Positions 18,419 to 48,629 of a stretch of DNA of 64,000 nucleotides are shown here, in pieces. Location of the stretch: IMG/VR virus record IMGVR_UViG_3300017754_003767. One strand, given 5' to 3'. Numbering within the stretch: the first letter of the stretch is position 1; every line of letters begins with the position of its first letter. Made by a program: the position numbers and the translations under genes. A model generated the notes under the pieces. The model did not search any database, had not been told where the DNA came from, and saw only the letters and a list, made by a program, of their open reading frames with translations. This DNA is from an uncultured virus (IMG/VR IMGVR_UViG_3300017754_003767). Its lineage: Duplodnaviria; Heunggongvirae; Uroviricota; Caudoviricetes.

Positions 18419-18504
18419 TGGTACAGACAGAGAGACTTGAACTCTCACGACCAAAGGTCTACGGATTTTAAGTCCGTTGCGTCTACCTATTCCGCCATGT
18501 CTGC
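18419..18504 (-). tRNA. trnL: tRNA-Leu(UAA), type II, with encoded CCA
   Basis: GCAGACA/TGTCTGT acceptor; ACGGA-CTTAAAA-TCCGT anticodon arm; long variable arm; GAGAG-TTCAAGT-CTCTC; ACCA. Confidence 0.93.
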
Positions 18505-24255: not shown

Positions 24256-24597
24256 TTACCTCAGGTACAAGTACGATCCTGCATAGTCACAGTTGTGTAG
24301 GCAGGTTTCAAATGATTGATCATCCAGTAACAGGTACCTGGCATGTTTCGCTGGTGCTTGCCATGATGCAGGCTTATAGAGAGTCCCTGTTTGCCTTGCG
24401 ACAAATGCGTGGACCGACCTGCCTTCATACCTGGTGCCAGGGCTAGAAACGTGGATGATCTTGTAGTACTTAACGCCGCGCTTAACTTCGAAAGCTATGG
24501 GGCTGTTGTACTGTTTGTAGAACTTCTCTTGGAGCGTATCGCAGAGTTCCTGGATACGATCTTCGATGAGCTTGGTGTTAGCGCTGAGTGTTGTCAT
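24256..24597 (-). CDS. Hypothetical phage protein
   Basis: KYYKII...SVHAFV...TG.LYKPASW.APAK.ARY family pattern. Confidence 0.75.
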   Translation of the reverse strand: MTTLSANTKLIEDRIQELCDTLQEKFYKQYNSPIAFEVKRGVKYYKIIHVSSPGTRYEGRSVHAFVARQTGTLYKPASWQAPAKHARYLLLDDQSFETCLHNCDYAGSYLYLR

Positions 24598-24775
24598 GTT
24601 GTTGAGTAGGAGTTTGGTTGGTGATATCCATGCCGACCACTGCACCTGCGGTGAGTGCGGCAATGATTAGTGACAGGGCTGCCACACAGATCTTACTAAG
24701 GCGAGTCTCATGAGACGCATAGTAAGAATCAAGGTGGACAAATTGCCCTGGTGCCAAACGTACTGTGTGTTTCAT
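24578..24775 (-). CDS. Small membrane protein
   Basis: One TM segment. Confidence 0.55.
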   Translation of the reverse strand: MKHTVRLAPGQFVHLDSYYASHETRLSKICVAALSLIIAALTAGAVVGMDITNQTPTQQHDNTQR

Positions 24776-24781
24776 TGGTGT

Positions 24782-25042
24782 TCAATCAACTGCAAGGATG
24801 TACTTAACGCATGCGTAGCTTGGGACTACGTAGTCGTTAGGAATTTCATTGAGGTAATACCATTGACCTTTGCAGTCAATTGATATGCAAGAGTCTTCGG
24901 TCGCAAGCTGCAGTGCTTTGGCACCTGTGGTGCACCAAATCATGTAAACATTCTTGTCAAACAGTAGATAGTAATCAGACTGTTTGATGTTGAACTGTGT
25001 GAGTGCAGCTTCAATTTGATGGTGGTCAAGTGTAACTGGCAT
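24782..25042 (-). CDS. Hypothetical protein
   Basis: 86-aa ORF. Confidence 0.55.
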   Translation of the reverse strand: MPVTLDHHQIEAALTQFNIKQSDYYLLFDKNVYMIWCTTGAKALQLATEDSCISIDCKGQWYYLNEIPNDYVVPSYACVKYILAVD

Positions 25043-25116
25043 GGGTATGCAGTTGGGTTGAGTGTGTGCAGACGGTGAGGTCTGCAGAAAAGGGCCAAAG
25101 CCCCTTAGTGCAAACG

Positions 25117-25305
25117 TCAGAGTGTACGTTTATCCAGGCAATAATACTTATCGCCTAGCATAAGGTCTTTCATGTAGACAAGCTGATGCCCTGCTTTCGC
25201 TGGGCAGTGCTCGACATGATAATTGTTCAGAAGCTTCTGTACTCCAACACAGAGCAGTAAACCTGCTCCTGTGCCTAGAAGATAGGGTAGTACGCAGTCT
25301 TTCAT
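25117..25305 (-). CDS. Small membrane protein
   Basis: N-terminal TM segment. Confidence 0.55.
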   Translation of the reverse strand: MKDCVLPYLLGTGAGLLLCVGVQKLLNNYHVEHCPAKAGHQLVYMKDLMLGDKYYCLDKRTL

Positions 25306-25306
25306 G

Positions 25307-25528
25307 TCAGGAAGGTTGGGTAATAGCTTGGTAGTAATCAGACATTGCAGCTAGTAGTTCCTTGGTACCACAAGGTAATCCTCCCATCAAAGTCTGGGAT
25401 TCACGGTCGATCCAATCAGGATCTCCCTTGTAGTCATCTACTTGCACCTGGTAGTGGAGCATGGTTGATTCTCCACTATGCCAGGTGATGCGCTCAGTCG
25501 CGCCTTCGTAGGGATAATAACAGAGCAT
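25307..25528 (-). CDS. Hypothetical protein
   Basis: 73-aa ORF. Confidence 0.55.
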   Translation of the reverse strand: MLCYYPYEGATERITWHSGESTMLHYQVQVDDYKGDPDWIDRESQTLMGGLPCGTKELLAAMSDYYQAITQPS

Positions 25529-25609
25529 TGAGTTGAGCTCGGTAGGTTTGATGACAGGATGTTGAGTCCTGTTGAGGGGCCGGTTGGCCCCAGAGCAGGA
25601 GTCAGTTGA

Positions 25610-25768
25610 TCACTTAGTTGGATACTTAGTAATCTTCGGCATGATTGCTTGAGCCAGACCAATGCGTACCGCAATGATTGTCTTGCCAAGCTTCTCTTTG
25701 GTTCGGTCTTCTTCCAAAGCTTTGGCAGCTTTGTTGAGACCAGTAGCAATAGATTTACGGATGGACAT
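25610..25768 (-). CDS. Small basic protein (MSIRKSIATG...)
   Basis: Start immediately after leader element 5. Confidence 0.55.
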   Translation of the reverse strand: MSIRKSIATGLNKAAKALEEDRTKEKLGKTIIAVRIGLAQAIMPKITKYPTK

Positions 25769-25774
25769 GTTGCG

Positions 25775-25850
25775 TTGATTGACCACTCTCAGTGAGTGGT
25801 AATAACTGGACCAGGGTTTGCACCTGGTCACCCGCTTTAACGGATCAGCT
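25775..25850 (-). ncRNA. Mini-tRNA-like three-way junction + pseudoknot leader, copy 5
   Basis: AGCTG atccgt-taaa-gcgggt GACCAGG-tgcaaac-CCTGGTC CAGTT att ACCAC tcacTGAga GTGGT caa TCA. Confidence 0.6.
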
Positions 25851-25997
25851 GCGAACGCGTTCTTCACTAATGATGAACCGTTCACCTTCCTCTAGTTCCT
25901 GGGCTTGAACGTAATTGTCAGCCGCTGCACGGCTAGCAAATACTCCCATGAAGTGATCCTGGTACAGATCGCAGAGGGTAACAACGTAAACCGACAT
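25845..25997 (-). CDS. Hypothetical protein (50 aa)
   Basis: AGGAG SD; MSVYVVTL...MGVFASRAAADNYV. Confidence 0.65.
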   Translation of the reverse strand: MSVYVVTLCDLYQDHFMGVFASRAAADNYVQAQELEEGERFIISEERVRS

Positions 25998-26012
25998 GGC
26001 TTACTCCTGTTG

Positions 26013-26087
26013 TGTGGTGCCTATCTCCACTGGAGGCAATAGTTGCCGGTGGGTTTGCACCACCGGACCCGCTTTAACGGATCAACT
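26013..26087 (-). ncRNA. Mini-tRNA-like three-way junction + pseudoknot leader, copy 4
   Basis: AGTTG atccgt-taaa-gcgggt CCGGTGG-tgcaaac-CCACCGG CAACT at TGCCT ccaGTGGagat AGGCA CCAC. Confidence 0.7.
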
Positions 26088-26134
26088 TCTAGACCTAACC
26101 CCTGTAAGGGACCCCACTGGGGATAGGGGAGTAA

Positions 26135-26323
26135 TCAATTAGTGGAGTAGCCGTTAGCTGCGCACCAATCCATGTGAATGTCATGTGCTTGCTTGGGCCA
26201 ATCATGAGTAGCACATTGCTGTGCAGTTGCTTGATCTAGTTGATGCATCATTACTTGCGTGCCGATGCCAATGATGATTGCAGCAACACAAATCGATGTG
26301 GCCCAGTTCTTGAATGCAGTCAT
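26135..26323 (-). CDS. Small membrane protein
   Basis: MTAFKNW + TM; QQCATHDWP..AH..HMDWC. Confidence 0.6.
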   Translation of the reverse strand: MTAFKNWATSICVAAIIIGIGTQVMMHQLDQATAQQCATHDWPKQAHDIHMDWCAANGYSTN

Positions 26324-26337
26324 GATGTTGAGTTGAT

Positions 26338-26408
26338 GTGCGGTACCCATCTCCGCTGTGGGTAATTGTTGAGTGGGGGATTCGATCCCCCGGCTCACGC
26401 CTAGTCAG
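26338..26408 (-). ncRNA. Mini-tRNA-like three-way junction + pseudoknot leader, copy 3
   Basis: GGC-gtga-GCC GGGGG-atcgaat-CCCCC ... TACCC acaGCGGagat GGGTA CCGC. Confidence 0.65.
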
Positions 26409-26596
26409 ATGACCATCTCAACGTCAGACATCATCATCTCGGGGAGAGTGAGTAGTTGGATGTCGTTAGTTCCCTGGACGCCATCGTTTAACTCTGGTGA
26501 GTTGTAGATAAAGTCCAGTTGTGCGGCGTTCTCCATCGCCTCTTCTTTACAGAAGTAGACGCTATGTTGTACGCCGTTGAGGATTACGTAGAACAC
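26405..26596 (-). CDS. Hypothetical protein (GTG start)
   Basis: GGAG SD then VFYVILNGVQH... Confidence 0.55.
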   Translation of the reverse strand: MFYVILNGVQHSVYFCKEEAMENAAQLDFIYNSPELNDGVQGTNDIQLLTLPEMMMSDVEMVI

Positions 26597-26611
26597 GCAA
26601 GTGTCTCCGTG

Positions 26612-26688
26612 TGTGCGGTACCCATCTCCGCTGAGGGTAATTACCAAGCCAGGCATTGCACCTGGCAGGGAGCTATCACTCACTTGGC
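26612..26688 (-). ncRNA. Mini-tRNA-like three-way junction + pseudoknot leader, copy 2
   Basis: GCCAA..GCCAGG-tgcaatg-CCTGGC TTGGT aat TACCC tcaGCGGagat GGGTA CCGC. Confidence 0.65.
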
Positions 26689-26859
26689 TTGAAGCTGCTT
26701 AGCAAACTTACGTGCAGCTTCTAGGGACATGCTGGTACTGCAGTCATATCCCTTATGTGTCTTACGAATCAGCTTCGTGATTCGCGCTAGTCCCACCTCC
26801 TGGTTAGCAACGAAGTGATACGTTGCTTCCTTCGTGGTGATGGTATAGAAGATGTCCAT
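26680..26859 (-). CDS. Hypothetical protein (first gene of the leftward early block)
   Basis: MDIFYTITTKEA... Confidence 0.6.
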   Translation of the reverse strand: MDIFYTITTKEATYHFVANQEVGLARITKLIRKTHKGYDCSTSMSLEAARKFAKQLQAK

Positions 26860-26877
26860 TGTGTTGAGCTGAGTGTG

Positions 26878-26950
26878 TGTGGTGCCTATCTCCACGTGAG
26901 GCAATTGCTGAAGTAGGGATTCGATCCCCGGCTCACGCCTTGTCTTCAGC
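26878..26950 (-). ncRNA. Mini-tRNA-like three-way junction + pseudoknot leader, copy 1
   Basis: GCTGAAG acaa GGC-gtga-GCC GGGG-atcgaat-CCCT a CTTCAGC aat TGCCT cacGTGGagat AGGCA CCAC. Confidence 0.7.
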
Positions 26951-27600
26951 TAAGCATCTACAGTCACAATCAGTTCTCGCTCCACTAAAGTGTAGGCGAG
27001 CTATAATTGTTAGCTTTAGGTGGGTGATTGGGGTGTGCTGAGGTTACAGTTAGGTTACGGTCAGGAAACCCTAACTTATTAAGTGCGAATCTTCACACTC
27101 TCTTAACCTTTCAACGTAGTCAGGTGCTGCGCTCGGCGCTTCATCCCAGGGGTCTTACGCTTAATCTCCCGTCGCTCACTCCTACTACTAAACTTTCACA
27201 CCCCTCACCCTTTCTTTTTTCTATACACATCCTCTCTCGGGTGGGTGGGTGGAGAAGCGTTTAGTTACTAATAACCCAAATGGGGTCTAAACTTGGCGCC
27301 TGCCAAAGGCGCTGCAAATACTATAAATATGTAAGTTAAAAAGTATGTTAGGTAAAGTACCAAAGATTAAAAAATTCAAATTTACAATAAAACAAACAAC
27401 GGTAAACACTAAAAAATAACCGATTATACATAAAGTACAAACGGTGGATTCCCCTGGAACGCCCCTAAAAATATTTACGGCAAATTATTTAAAATTTAAA
27501 ATACACAAAAAAATAAAACCCCTAAATGGGGCTAGAAAGTATGATAAAAATGTAATGAAGTACCCTAGTTAGCCCAAGTTTTTAGACAAAAACCCGTCTT
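26951..27600. other. Long non-coding region at the early/late junction (candidate genome terminus, packaging site or origin)
   Basis: No credible ORF; pyrimidine/G tracts then a very A-rich stretch; gene orientation switches nearby. Confidence 0.45.
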
Positions 27601-27602
27601 AG

Positions 27603-27833
27603 TTACTTATTTTTCTTTACTTGGCGGGCCGCAGCGCGGGCAGCCTTACGGAACGCTTCTTCATCAGGGTGCTTAAATGCAAGTTGCTTAGCACCTTCGT
27701 TAATAAATCCACGAACGGTGAAAGCATCAGCCCCTTCAGACGCCATTTTCTCGGCACGGGACTTAATTGCCTCTAACCCTTCTACTTTTTTGACCTGATC
27801 TTGAAGATCCATGGGGATCTTTACCCGATTCAT
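27603..27833 (-). CDS. Small basic hypothetical protein
   Basis: MNRVKIPMDLQDQVKK... Confidence 0.55.
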   Translation of the reverse strand: MNRVKIPMDLQDQVKKVEGLEAIKSRAEKMASEGADAFTVRGFINEGAKQLAFKHPDEEAFRKAARAAARQVKKNK

Positions 27834-27920
27834 CAACTTTTTACTACTATACAACAAATATTTTTGGATTTTTGTCGCATAGAATAACTCAAGGACTAAA
27901 TATAGTGAGCGATAACCCAA

Positions 27921-30218
27921 ATGTTGCTGTCTCCCGCTGATTTTGACGCTTATTCTCGGGCAACAGGGCGTCCAGTACCAGAAGAACCGGAGGAAAAGGC
28001 TCGCCTGGTACCTGAAGTCTCTGAGTTTCGCCGTAATCAGCTCAAGTCACCCGAAACACAGCGCAGTGAGGGCTCTGGTCTCCTTCAGGCCCTTGGTATT
28101 GGGGCAGCAGTACTTGGTGGCGGGGCATTATTGGCGCGTGGCCTGGGTCGCAGGGGCGGCGTTCGGATGGGCAACGCCCAACAGGCGGCAAAAGAAGCAG
28201 TACAAGAGGTTAACGTTCAAGATTTTGGGAATGTGTACCGTGCGGCGGGGCGTCCTGCACCTTCTCGCCCTGCTCCCACACCAACTCCTACGCAGCGTAC
28301 CGCGACAGCACCTGCACCTACTCCTCGTCCGGCAGGTTCCAGGCAAGGTGGTGTTCAAGTAACCAACCTATACGAACTTGCAAACCTTAAACCGGAAGAT
28401 TTGCGTCGTGCACCTGAAACTTTAAGTGAAGCTGCGCAGTCCTTGAGCAGCAAAGATTTTATTTCCAACTATTTCAAACAATCCGCAACACCCGCAGGTG
28501 CTTTAACAAGTTCCGTAAATAATGTCATTGCTGTAGAAAAAGTTATCCCCGAATCCCTGGTAACCAAACAACAAACTATTGGTGGACGGGTTGCGGATCA
28601 AACTGCAAATGCAATTGATTCGGCAGAAGACCAGATGACTGGTCGCGTCAAATCTCAACTGCAACGCAACGAAGATCTTGACATGAGTCAGATCGACTTG
28701 CTCGAAGAGATGGCAGAACAAGACCGTAATTGGATGATGGAGCAGGATGAGCCCATCAATCAAGTTGCTTCTAAACTTCCTGATGGTTTGCCTGTTGACC
28801 AGGCAGAGGGTCTGGCAAAATCAAGCGCCCAAAGCTTCCTGCAACGTGAACGGGATGAAATTGCATCTCAACTGGGCGAACAAAATCTTCCTGTAACAAG
28901 TACTCGTATTGAACAAGAGCTTTCTCGTCGCCTTGGAAAAGAAGCTTCTGGATATGGCTCCAAGTACACGGCTCGCCGTCAAGCACTTGAACTTTTTGCA
29001 AAAACAGGTGATCCTCAATTAGCTGAAAAAGTACAACGCTTTGGTTTGTCACCGGTTACTTTTGAAACGATGGAAGGAATGCCGGCAGCAAAACGAGCCG
29101 GTTTTGAATCTGCTCCTGCAATGTCCTTGGATTATTACCCAAGTGAAGAGTTGACTGCTGCAGGGTTAAGCTCCAGCCAAAACATTAACCTCCCTGGAGT
29201 TGGCAATGTATCTCTTGCCGACATTAGGCGTCCCGTCGTTACTGAAAGTACTGCTCAACAGGCCGAAGAGTTTTATCAAGGACGCAAAGGCAAGGCACTT
29301 GATTGGCTTGGAGAAAAGAGGGTCGAGCTGGAACCCAAGCGTAATCAAATCCTAAAAGAACGTCAGTTACTTGCTCAACAAAGTGCCAATCAAATCATTC
29401 CACAACTCAATGAAGCAAAAGCAACAGGACAACTAGATAAAGTTGAAGAGCTTGAATTTAGCTTGAATACGCTTCGTAACTTATACAGAAATCCAAGGCT
29501 TGGTACGCACCGTGAAGGTGAACTCAGGTCTCTTGATGCACGTATTGCTAAGGCACAAAATAAAATTGCAGGAGATGTTGCAACGATTCAAAAACGATAC
29601 CCAACAACCCTTGAAGATTGGTCTGGAGAAGCACCTCGTTTATTTGCAGAGTTAGATCCAGATACCGGTGAAATCATTCCCGAAACCGTGGAACTACGTT
29701 CAGAACGTCCCATGGTAGACCTAGAGCCTAAAGGTGGTGGTGGGCGAAATGTTGCTGAGTTTGCCGCTGGCTCACGTAGTGCGACAGAAAATGCTATCCG
29801 TGAAGTTCAACAAGGTGGTCGTCGCACCAGGGTTCGCGACTTTGATATTGAAACCGGTGGCGCAGTTCAAAACTTTGAAGATGATCGTACTCAAACAGGA
29901 AGAGTAATTGGCCGCTATGGCATTCAACTCGCTGGCGAAAAACCTGCAGATACAACAAAACGTCCTTCGTTACCCAGGTACACAAAAGAAGAAATTCTTT
30001 CTACTGCCCTTGAGAATGCACAGGCTGATCCCTATGGAGACGCGCCCCTTCCTCCTGATTACGAAGAGATCACGGCAATCCTTGGCACAAAAGAAAAACC
30101 GTCAACTCGCCAGAATATCCGCGCTTCTGAAGATATACTTAGGATACAAAGATCTGCCCCTCCTGGCAAAGCACAAGCCCTTGTTAACCAATACTTGAAT
30201 AACTTACGCGGAGCTTGA
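27921..30218 (+). CDS. Large putative internal virion protein
   Basis: 765 aa; N-terminal Gly-rich TM segment, Pro-rich linker, coiled coils. Confidence 0.6.
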   Translation: MLLSPADFDAYSRATGRPVPEEPEEKARLVPEVSEFRRNQLKSPETQRSEGSGLLQALGIGAAVLGGGALLARGLGRRGGVRMGNAQQAAKEAVQEVNVQDFGNVYRAAGRPAPSRPAPTPTPTQRTATAPAPTPRPAGSRQGGVQVTNLYELANLKPEDLRRAPETLSEAAQSLSSKDFISNYFKQSATPAGALTSSVNNVIAVEKVIPESLVTKQQTIGGRVADQTANAIDSAEDQMTGRVKSQLQRNEDLDMSQIDLLEEMAEQDRNWMMEQDEPINQVASKLPDGLPVDQAEGLAKSSAQSFLQRERDEIASQLGEQNLPVTSTRIEQELSRRLGKEASGYGSKYTARRQALELFAKTGDPQLAEKVQRFGLSPVTFETMEGMPAAKRAGFESAPAMSLDYYPSEELTAAGLSSSQNINLPGVGNVSLADIRRPVVTESTAQQAEEFYQGRKGKALDWLGEKRVELEPKRNQILKERQLLAQQSANQIIPQLNEAKATGQLDKVEELEFSLNTLRNLYRNPRLGTHREGELRSLDARIAKAQNKIAGDVATIQKRYPTTLEDWSGEAPRLFAELDPDTGEIIPETVELRSERPMVDLEPKGGGGRNVAEFAAGSRSATENAIREVQQGGRRTRVRDFDIETGGAVQNFEDDRTQTGRVIGRYGIQLAGEKPADTTKRPSLPRYTKEEILSTALENAQADPYGDAPLPPDYEEITAILGTKEKPSTRQNIRASEDILRIQRSAPPGKAQALVNQYLNNLRGA

Positions 30219-47957: not shown

Positions 47958-48629
47958 ATGTCATTAAGCCCCGCCGCAGCTATTGTTGCACGCAAGTTAA
48001 AACAACAAGGCTATACCAACGCGCAGATTGCGGGTGTCCTTGGGAATATCTCCCAAGAGTCTGGCTTCAATCCTCGCGTAAACGAGGGTGGTGCAGTTGG
48101 TGGTCCCATGGGACGTGGCGGGTATGGCTTGGCACAATGGACAGGTGGCCGCCAAACTAACTTAGTTAATTTTGCAAAAACAAAAAAGCTTGACCCAGGT
48201 GATGCCGGTCTTCAAGCCGATTTTTTATTGCATGAATTACAAGGACCCGAAAGCCGTGCAGCCGAATCTCTGCGCAAGGCACAGTCACCTGAGCAAGCAG
48301 CGTTAGTTTTTCGTCGTGACTTTGAACGCGCCGGCATCCCCAAGGATGAGAACCGGATGCGTGCAGCACGCGACTTAATGCCTAAACTGCAATCACTAGA
48401 AGGTGGGATTGATTTTGCACCACCTGCCCTCCCTGGAGAGCAGCAAAGTGTTGCTTATCGTTTAGCGCAAGCAGGTATTGATCTCACTGGTGATCAAGAA
48501 GATAAAAAAACGACGGCCAATACATTGCTAGAAGCATTTAAGCAACAGGTTCTCCCTGCAATGCTTCCACAAGGTATTATGAACATTAACGCCCTTAATC
48601 CGTTCCAAAATCCATTCCAGGTGCTTTGA
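47958..48629 (+). CDS. Phage tail lysozyme (Phage_lysozyme2-like)
   Basis: IAGVLGNISQESGFNP...GGYGLAQWT..R...Q.DFLLHEL...FERAG. Confidence 0.85.
   Translation: MSLSPAAAIVARKLKQQGYTNAQIAGVLGNISQESGFNPRVNEGGAVGGPMGRGGYGLAQWTGGRQTNLVNFAKTKKLDPGDAGLQADFLLHELQGPESRAAESLRKAQSPEQAALVFRRDFERAGIPKDENRMRAARDLMPKLQSLEGGIDFAPPALPGEQQSVAYRLAQAGIDLTGDQEDKKTTANTLLEAFKQQVLPAMLPQGIMNINALNPFQNPFQVL

Follow-up and report, generated by a model that had tools for sequence, protein, structure and literature searches.

Organelles, animal viruses and long non-coding RNAs provide examples of processing signals with the shape of a tRNA. In the eukaryotic nucleus, the tRNA-like element (mascRNA) of the long MALAT1 and MEN-beta transcripts is cut by tRNA enzymes, with RNase P making the cut, and the new end is stabilised by a neighbouring triple helix, which is located upstream. 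Acceptor/T-arm mimics combined with a pseudoknot close to a coding start occur in transfer-messenger RNA (tmRNA), whose acceptor stem joins both ends of the molecule and encloses an open reading frame (ORF), and in the tRNA-like structures (TLS) of plant viruses, which are located at the 3' end and carry CCA. In phage T7, long imperfect hairpins between the early genes serve as RNase III sites, at which the cut by the host leaves stabilising ends. As outlined in PMC9181182, tRNA-end nucleases define mRNA ends in mitochondrial tRNA punctuation and at plant mitochondrial tRNA-like sequences, and the tRNA-microRNA-encoded RNAs (TMERs) of murine gammaherpesvirus 68 (MHV68) consist of a tRNA-like unit, a few nucleotides (nt) and a pre-microRNA hairpin, the unit and the hairpin being separated by the host tRNase Z (PMC3534370). 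In T4-type phages, short conserved regulatory repeats, the promoter early stem-loop (PeSL) cassettes, flank small variable ORFs of a hyperplastic early region and mediate modular shuffling (PMC2839356). Here, we describe a bipartite RNA element, which occurs in five copies in a stretch of 64,000 nt from the uncultured virus IMGVR_UViG_3300017754_003767 (Caudoviricetes), the whole of which is referred to as the window. Its first part, module A, mimics the acceptor/T-arm stack of a tRNA without an anticodon arm or other tRNA parts, a conclusion that is strongly supported by the results below, and its second part, module B, is a pseudoknot or hairpin located shortly before a start codon. We conclude that the element represents a genuine cis-acting RNA family, which is widespread and shows strong covariation.

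A bipartite RNA element with covarying stems

A covariance model (R1) was built from 52 relatives and used to search the window with filters off. It matched exactly five copies, all of them on the minus strand (E values from 4e-19 to 8e-6; next match E = 0.22), which lie before the first five genes of the leftward unit, as had been stated in an earlier model-made note on this DNA (the original prediction), and which were also recovered by a repeat finder as families D1-D5. Exact motif searches found the core of module B four times and two cores of module A once or twice each, and nowhere else. The closing stems, the small hairpin (GNRA-type or NAAA-type), the 7-nt loops (ATCGAAT twice, TGCAATG once, TGCAAAC twice) and the A that follows the closing stem are present in the sequence as predicted, the start codons follow 13-19 nt past module B, and variants of the two modules are combined differently across the copies. 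A three-way junction had been predicted for module A in general; the minimum-energy folds contain it in copies 1, 2 and 5, whereas copy 3 forms a four-way junction, and in copy 4 only the small hairpin is kept and the T-like arm pairs with module B. Single-sequence folding gave z-scores of -2.4, 0.0, -3.1, -2.5 and -3.6 for copies 1 to 5. The sixth R1 match, located at 48355-48447 on the minus strand (14.7 bits), has a UGCAAA-type loop, lies antisense to structural genes and is probably due to chance.

Relatives were collected by two scans of IMG/VR. With the small hairpin conserved in copies 4 and 5, 107 loci with 113 instances were obtained, 96 of which are distinct and were chosen without regard to module B. 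The pseudoknot core gave at least 123 loci, with 147 distinct upstream contexts among the matches listed. The 140 and 130 sequences on which counts for module A are based are relatives anchored on module B, among the matches listed, and are unbiased for module A.

The acceptor/T-arm minihelix of a tRNA comprises 12 base pairs (bp; 7+5), is capped by the T-loop (U54-U55-C56-R57-A58) and is followed by one unpaired discriminator base. In the 140 relatives, the hairpin with the 7-nt loop directly abuts the 3' strand of the closing stem, and the rest of module A is very diverse, ranging over three-way junctions with varied hairpins, an 8-nt bulge only, or two hairpins. Between the end of the loop and module B there are 15 nt in 107 of these relatives and 16 nt in another 19, which corresponds to a helix strand of 12 (13) nt, one unpaired nt and UU. 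The T-like stem comprises 4-8 bp and the closing stem 3-8 bp, and their sum is 12 in 70, 11 in 27 and 13 in 26 of the 140 sequences. This sum is split between the T-like and the closing stem mostly as 7+5 (48 sequences), but also as 5+7 (11), 5+6 (10) and 8+5 (7), and 6+6 occurs as well. A count in a fixed register, which is independent of stem-calling, found positions 1-5 paired in 100-117 and positions 6-7 in 85-88 of 130 sequences, and beyond position 7 the numbers drop to 42, 17 and 28. The pattern NNCRANN fits 129 of the 140 loops, among them UGCAAAC (53), AUCGAAU (22) and the canonical UUCGA/UUCAA (17). Its first two positions are UG in about 80, AU in about 29 and UU in 17 loops, and C-R-A is kept in 129. 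The linker behind the stack is AUU in 70/140 and nearly always ends in UU; the U right after the discriminator is invariant and has no C behind it, and C-C never occurs. With the helix strand of 12 nt, the NNCRANN loops and the unpaired N followed by UU, the acceptor/T-arm mimicry put forward in the original prediction has gained strong support.

The stems of both modules covary among the relatives. In the 52-sequence alignment, the 7-bp T-like arm is 99.7% paired and shows double changes at 6 of its 7 pairs, and in the alignment of 130 sequences, chosen without reference to module A, all four inner stem pairs change on both sides. One closing-stem pair (columns 4-48) is G.U in 19/52 sequences, and the second closing pair is G.U in 36 of the 96 instances versus a single A.C. 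Since G.U pairs occur almost without matching A.C, the fold belongs to the sense-strand RNA.

Two related kinds of molecule were considered and rejected. ARAGORN calls no tRNA gene at the five copies and none in 231 related loci (0/231), which together comprise about 250 instances, and none in this region in its mitochondrial modes, and at a score threshold of 80% it makes scattered calls only, which do not match the helices of the element. It also finds no tmRNA in the window, and the closing stem encloses no ORF. At 1411-1483 on the plus strand, ARAGORN reports a 'tRNA-???' with a two-base anticodon and a canonical GGTTCGATTCC T-arm, which may be an odd or degenerate tRNA.

Module B falls into four classes among the 96 instances, namely a pseudoknot with the motif GGAGAU (52), a 7-bp hairpin with an ACYRA-type loop (24), a 5-bp hairpin with an AAUCCC loop (9) and other hairpins (11). 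Every class begins 2-3 nt after the unpaired discriminator base. A covarying pseudoknot had been proposed for all copies; this applies to copies 1-4, whereas copy 5 carries a plain hairpin of the 7-bp class, the stems of which covary as well. In the alignment of 52 relatives, 96.4% of the cells are paired and 15 of 27 pairs are changed on both sides, a value that was reached in 0 of 500 shuffles. The two stems of the pseudoknot, S1 and S2, are arranged in crossing order, each with support from covariation: in S1, columns 53-74 are GC in 40 and AU in 12 sequences and columns 59-71 are CG in 32, UA in 13 and UG in 6; in S2, columns 64-78 are CG in 37, UA in 10, AU in 3 and GC in 2, and double changes are likewise found at the pairs 63-79 and 65-77. 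Between the 3' strands of the two stems there is no linker (0 nt), and the GG and the joint AGAU that follows it (GGAGAU) are invariant in 52/52 sequences. According to our own geometric reasoning, the missing linker and the 4-nt joint exclude a classical coaxially stacked H-type knot, so that this label of the original prediction has to be dropped. Instead, the S1 and S2 helices may lie side by side, or the two stems may alternate.

In 149 of 172 cases, 13-17 nt separate the end of the pseudoknot from the start codon, and the next start codon is located about 45 nt after the discriminator. In 55/157 pseudoknot-type leaders, a small hairpin of about -6 kcal/mol is formed by pairing between the Shine-Dalgarno (SD) sequence and the start codon, which is often GTG. 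An example is ACAGGAGAAUCCUGUG at 26610-26594 on the minus strand of the window, with further ones in the loci L011, L012 and L049; this hairpin could represent a third, translational module. A variant of the pseudoknot with G at a covarying position contains an AUG right after GGAG (26352-26347 and 26627-26622, minus strand). The AUG within the pseudoknot is in frame with the downstream start in 53/107 relatives, and translation from it was rejected, since the frame agreement is probably due to the modal spacing of 15 nt.

Related viral contigs frequently contain the element. In five complete relatives (80-88 kb), 2-5 copies each are clustered on a single strand within at most 1.9 kb, and Synechococcus phage S-EIVl itself carries two, at about 4434-4355 and 4140-4070 on the minus strand of L001. 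In cellular genomes, the pseudoknot core gave 62 matches in 596 gigabases (Gb) versus about 69 expected by chance according to our own estimate, and only two of the 62 are full elements, both of them on short contigs of metagenome-assembled genomes (MAGs). These two contigs, L257 and L289, are 4.7 and 9.0 kb long, belong to Bacteroidota MAGs and carry complete elements of the AUCGAAU/GUCGAAC type. A cellular origin was rejected, since the core is at chance level in 596 Gb and L257 and L289 look like mis-binned phage contigs. In the high-GC viral contigs L202 and L203, the same GCGGAGAUGGGCACCGC core is located behind a different, GC-rich hairpin (GACCCGAG...CTCGGGTC) without a tRNA-like module, which represents either chance or an independent use of the pseudoknot.

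A search of Rfam 15 at 25300-27400 gave 9 matches at E <= 10, all far below the gathering score and none at a copy, so that no characterised Rfam family matches the element. It is undescribed in Rfam and in the literature searched, where we also found no description of a tRNA-shaped signal punctuating bacteriophage mRNAs; the IMG/VR catalogue of 8,495 candidate RNAs outlined in PMC10690425 may hold the motif unnamed.

Proposed processing and alternative explanations

The element sits at the boundary of two coding RNAs, with the upstream stop inside and the next start downstream. In 57 of the 96 instances, the longest upstream ORF is terminated by the UGA within the CUGAUCC conserved in module A, and in the window module A of copies 2, 3 and 5 contains the TGA of the upstream gene. 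Since the stop codon is located inside the closing stem, only a cut on the 3' side leaves the upstream message intact. Terminal structures slow 5'-end-dependent RNases, and RNase Z, the endonuclease of tRNA 3' processing, reportedly prefers a U after its cut (Pellegrini et al. 2003). RNase Z makes its cut immediately behind the discriminator, where C's suppress it, and in the complex of the Bacillus subtilis enzyme the contacts are limited to the T-arm plus acceptor stem (PMC7479834).

From these observations we infer a cleavage, its enzyme and a protective effect as follows. Each copy would be an RNA junction that acts in cis within the polycistronic early transcript of the leftward unit, where the host endonuclease for CCA-less tRNA 3' processing (RNase Z) would cut once, directly after the discriminator. 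The stop codon would stay with the upstream cistron, which would end in a compact tRNA-like 3' structure, and the downstream cistron would begin with 1-3 unpaired nt, followed by module B at a fixed distance of about 15 nt from the start codon. Both cut products would be shielded from end-dependent RNases, and each gene would obtain a standard 5' leader. A single cut of the RNase Z type between the modules appears to be the most likely mechanism, if a tentative one. Protection of the new 5' end against RNase J, as suggested in the original prediction, is pure inference; it would fit the start of module B 2-3 nt past the proposed cut. The host would be the source of the enzyme, and no phage-encoded RNA enzyme able to act on the element was found among 79 ORFs (Pfam) or 9 ORFs (PHROGs). 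ARAGORN detected a genuine tRNA-Leu(UAA) with an encoded CCA at 18419-18504 (minus strand), which belongs to the same leftward unit as the copies, so that the transcript is already a substrate of tRNA-end enzymes. An ATG follows about 20 nt past this tRNA, behind the CA-rich leader CAACTCAAACACA, a leader common to several copies.

The genes behind the copies were compared among the relatives. The 263 downstream ORFs that could be assigned belong to 83 families, which are found with varied types of the element. The largest family, which comprises 43 homologues of the third ORF of the window, is preceded by 10 loop classes and by all four classes of module B, and other downstream families behave alike. 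Together with the mixed variants of modules A and B in the window, this indicates that the junctions are exchanged independently of the genes, as is expected if the junctions serve as recombination points, and the corresponding suggestion of the original prediction is supported by these data. The similar junctions of about 80-95 nt would then double as recombination points that reshuffle the intervening small genes. Taken together, we propose as a possible, though rather speculative, reading a 'tRNA punctuation' of freshwater cyanophages, in which a host tRNA 3' endonuclease would split the early polycistron into single-gene messages capped by the tRNA-arm mimic at the 3' end and by the knot or hairpin at the 5' end, and in which the junctions would also act as a recombination scaffold.

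Several points weigh against such a punctuation. The cut is placed on the basis of sequence and predicted structure. Most of the loops (UGCAAAC, AUCGAAU) differ from the T-loop of tRNAs at position 54 or 55, and module A has no obvious D-loop partner. A stable structure 1-3 nt past the cut might hinder the short-form bacterial RNase Z. The constant lengths could partly reflect common descent, against which the variable split between the stems argues. Finally, the tight spacing between module B and the start codon, the invariant GGAGAU and the SD-plus-start hairpins (55/157) fit a purely translational role equally well. An uncleaved unit with a translational or insulating role is indeed the main rival, which we regard as unlikely but worth serious consideration. 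Here, module B, located about 15 nt before the start, would serve as a ribosome standby site or enhancer or as the operator of a protein, and module A would recruit a tRNA-binding factor or insulate the ribosome-binding site from upstream sequence and terminating ribosomes. Besides the distance of 13-17 nt between knot and start codon and the pairing of the SD sequence with the start, the upstream stop inside module A is in favour of this role, as it would couple termination and refolding. The 12-bp stack, the T-loop-like loop and the unpaired N followed by U, which are kept across varied architectures, are left unexplained by it, however. The four unrelated structures found as module B speak against a sequence-specific operator, and searches with Pfam and PHROG found no RNA-binding protein family among the ORFs of the window.

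Among other nucleases, RNase P had been named in the original prediction beside RNase Z and might act by itself or ahead of RNase Z, with a cut at the 5' end of the closing stem. A 12-bp acceptor/T-arm stack with a T-loop is a minimal RNase P substrate, and genuine tRNAs in the operon must be cut by this enzyme. However, the cut would strip the upstream stop codon in 57/96 instances, the outermost pair is mostly A-U or G.U instead of G-C and is preceded more often by C or A than by U (pair 6: CA 44, AA 25 and UA 15 of 96), and the elbow is without a D-loop partner; this half of the processing proposal is therefore disfavoured, and we consider it improbable. A similarly low probability is assigned to RNase E, which prefers AU-rich single strands beside stem-loops and could cut the A-U-U between the two stable structures. 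The AUU linker (70/140) with its near-constant UU end and the helices on both sides would suit this enzyme, but 2-3 unpaired nt are short for it, and the tRNA-like geometry of module A would remain unexplained. The copies might also be boundaries at the level of DNA, comparable to PeSLs, which allow homologous swapping of small early genes, the RNA fold being secondary. The 83 families among the 263 downstream ORFs, the 43-member family with its varied loops and all four module-B classes, the clustering of the copies in one short region per genome and the documented shuffling by PeSLs (PMC2839356) are in line with this. However, the compensatory changes and the G.U pairs on one strand only point to selection on an RNA fold and not on DNA similarity alone, and the copies differ from PeSLs in that they hold no promoter-like or terminator-like site, so that this explanation, too, has little probability. 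Across 24500-28200, 2 promoter-like sites were found versus 4.6 expected, and a promoter/terminator cassette was rejected, since no copy contains such a site. Very unlikely, in our view, is a decoy or sponge, for which the tRNA-arm mimics would titrate a host factor that binds or cuts acceptor/T-arms, such as a tRNA-targeting defence nuclease. The presence of several copies early in infection and the restriction of the mimicry to the acceptor/T-arm part would agree with it; a decoy would explain neither the constant connection with module B and the start codon nor the overlap with the stop codon, and we know of no defence context. Least probable of all is a self-cleaving ribozyme of a new class, even though a compact junction with a pseudoknot at an intergenic site of a phage may call it to mind: the three-way junction has no unpaired core nt, only C-R-A of the loop is conserved across the variants of module A, plain hairpins can replace module B, and no Rfam ribozyme matched at E <= 10. 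A hammerhead-like reading of CUGA was rejected because the junction is without an unpaired core.

Genome setting of the five copies

Most of a phage genome is covered by the window, and this phage is related to the polar freshwater cyanophage S-EIVl (blastn: 77.8% identity at 10% coverage of a 6-kb query). According to Pfam, a leftward unit on the minus strand starts at about 27,000 with small unknown ORFs, followed by PcfJ-like, ThyX, GP88, DNA polymerase A and SSB genes, and the plus strand encodes, rightward from 27,921, the terminase, lysozymes and large structural ORFs. The five copies precede the five ORFs that open the leftward, replication-side operon, a short way downstream of the divergent intergenic region, and it is a fair inference that these ORFs are early genes. 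No Pfam or PHROG family matched the five small ORFs. The module-A variant of copy 2 is also found in the relatives L126, L184, L194 and L167, and the downstream protein start of this copy, VFYVILNG, is also seen in relatives. All coordinates are given in Table 1.

Table 1 Coordinates of the five copies, of their modules and of the ORFs served by them (CM, covariance model).
Feature	Position	Strand	Details
Five small ORFs served by the copies	25610..26859	-	50-63 amino acids
Copy 1	26950-26879	-	sequence, R1
Copy 1 module A	26907..26950	-	closing stem GCTGAAG (26950-26944) / CTTCAGC (26913-26907); CM E = 5.3e-6
Copy 1 module A arms		-	hairpin GGC-GTGA-GCC 26939-26930; T-like arm GGGG-ATCGAAT-CCCT 26929-26915
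Copy 1 module B, pseudoknot	26879..26903	-	S1 TGCCT (26903-26899) / AGGCA (26887-26883); joint AGAT
Copy 1 module B, S2		-	GTGG (26895-26892) / CCAC (26882-26879); ATG 26859-26857
Copy 2	26688-26615	-	sequence, R1
Copy 2 module A	26643..26688	-	closing stem GCCAA (26688-26684) / TTGGT (26647-26643); CM E = 5.6e-10
Copy 2 module A arms		-	hairpin GAGT-GATA-GCTC 26681-26670; T-like arm GCCAGG-TGCAATG-CCTGGC 26666-26648; stop TGA 26682-26680
Copy 2 module B, pseudoknot	26615..26639	-	S1 TACCC/GGGTA, S2 GCGG/CCGC; likely GTG start 26596-26594 behind GGAG
Copy 3	26422-26340	-	sequence, R1
Copy 3 module A, four-way junction	26368..26422	-	closing stem GTTGAG (26422-26417) / CTCAAC (26373-26368); CM E = 8.1e-6
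Copy 3 extra hairpin	26415-26402	-	contains upstream stop TGA 26407-26405
Copy 3 module A arms		-	hairpin GGC-GTGA-GCC 26401-26392; T-like arm GGGGG-ATCGAAT-CCCCC 26391-26375
Copy 3 module B, pseudoknot	26340..26364	-	TACCC/GGGTA + GCGG/CCGC; ATG 26323-26321
Copy 4	26087-26014	-	sequence, R1
Copy 4 module A	26041..26087	-	closing stem AGTTG/CAACT; hairpin ATCCG-TTAAAG-CGGGT 26082-26067; CM E = 4.2e-19
Copy 4 T-like arm	26066-26046	-	CCGGTGG-TGCAAAC-CCACCGG; 7-bp arm + 5-bp closing stem = 12
Copy 4 module B, pseudoknot	26014..26038	-	TGCCT/AGGCA + GTGG/CCAC; then SD AGGAG, ATG 25997-25995
Copy 5	25850-25782	-	sequence, R1
Copy 5 module A	25804..25850	-	closing stem AGCTG/CAGTT with one G.U pair; stop TGA 25847-25845; CM E = 4.4e-13
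Copy 5 module A arms		-	hairpin 25845-25830; T-like arm GACCAGG-TGCAAAC-CCTGGTC 25829-25809
Copy 5 module B, plain 7-bp hairpin	25782..25800	-	ACCACTC-ACTGA-GAGTGGT; ATG 25768-25766

Two further sites were noticed at the borders of this region. On the 3' side of the fifth ORF (about 25595-25560, minus strand), there is no copy; instead, a GC-rich hairpin GGGGCC-AACC-GGCCCC is located inside CTCCTG/CAGGA, and S-EIVl (L001, about 3880-3860, minus strand) has a comparable hairpin, CCCACCC-GCAA-GGGTGGG, at the same place. Upstream of copy 1, an untranslated stretch of about 300 nt contains the motif CTGACTACGTT at about 27121-27111 (minus strand). This motif is present twice in S-EIVl (L001, about 4990 and about 4955, minus strand) and may be a conserved leader or an element of the promoter region.

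Significance and comparison with known systems

If the cleavage took place, phages would exploit the tRNA maturation of the host to set the ends and the stability of their mRNAs. The early region of an abundant, uncultured lineage of cyanophages could then be recognised by this marker, and a compact natural insulator part would be at hand for synthetic cyanobacterial operons; as a form of punctuation, the junctions would be a natural counterpart of engineered RNA insulators. Even without cleavage, the element is a well-supported new structured RNA family, and its unusual zero-linker pseudoknot is worth structural study.

As in organellar punctuation, a tRNA-derived shape marks the border between messages, the tRNA-arm mimic being located exactly between a stop codon and the next leader. 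However, organelles use whole tRNAs or near-cloverleaf folds, whereas the phage element mimics the acceptor/T-arm only, overlaps the upstream stop and invariably has a knot or hairpin coupled to it downstream, and its cleavage is so far a prediction. With the TMERs it shares the order of a tRNA-like unit followed by a stable structure, but TMERs are eukaryotic Pol III transcripts of an animal virus, and their product is a microRNA precursor and not an mRNA with a capped 5' end. In MALAT1 and MEN-beta, the protecting structure is located upstream, whereas the corresponding part of the phage element, module B, follows downstream. The RNase III sites of T7 are likewise repeated structured RNAs between early genes, from which the element differs by its tRNA-arm-shaped three-way junction. 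The likeness to the PeSL cassettes is one of role only, as both flank shuffled small variable ORFs; a PeSL consists of a sigma-70 promoter and a terminator stem-loop, whereas the phage element has neither, and its conservation lies in RNA base pairs. Finally, unlike tmRNA and the plant-virus TLS, the element combines its parts in the order of mimic, knot and ordinary start codon.

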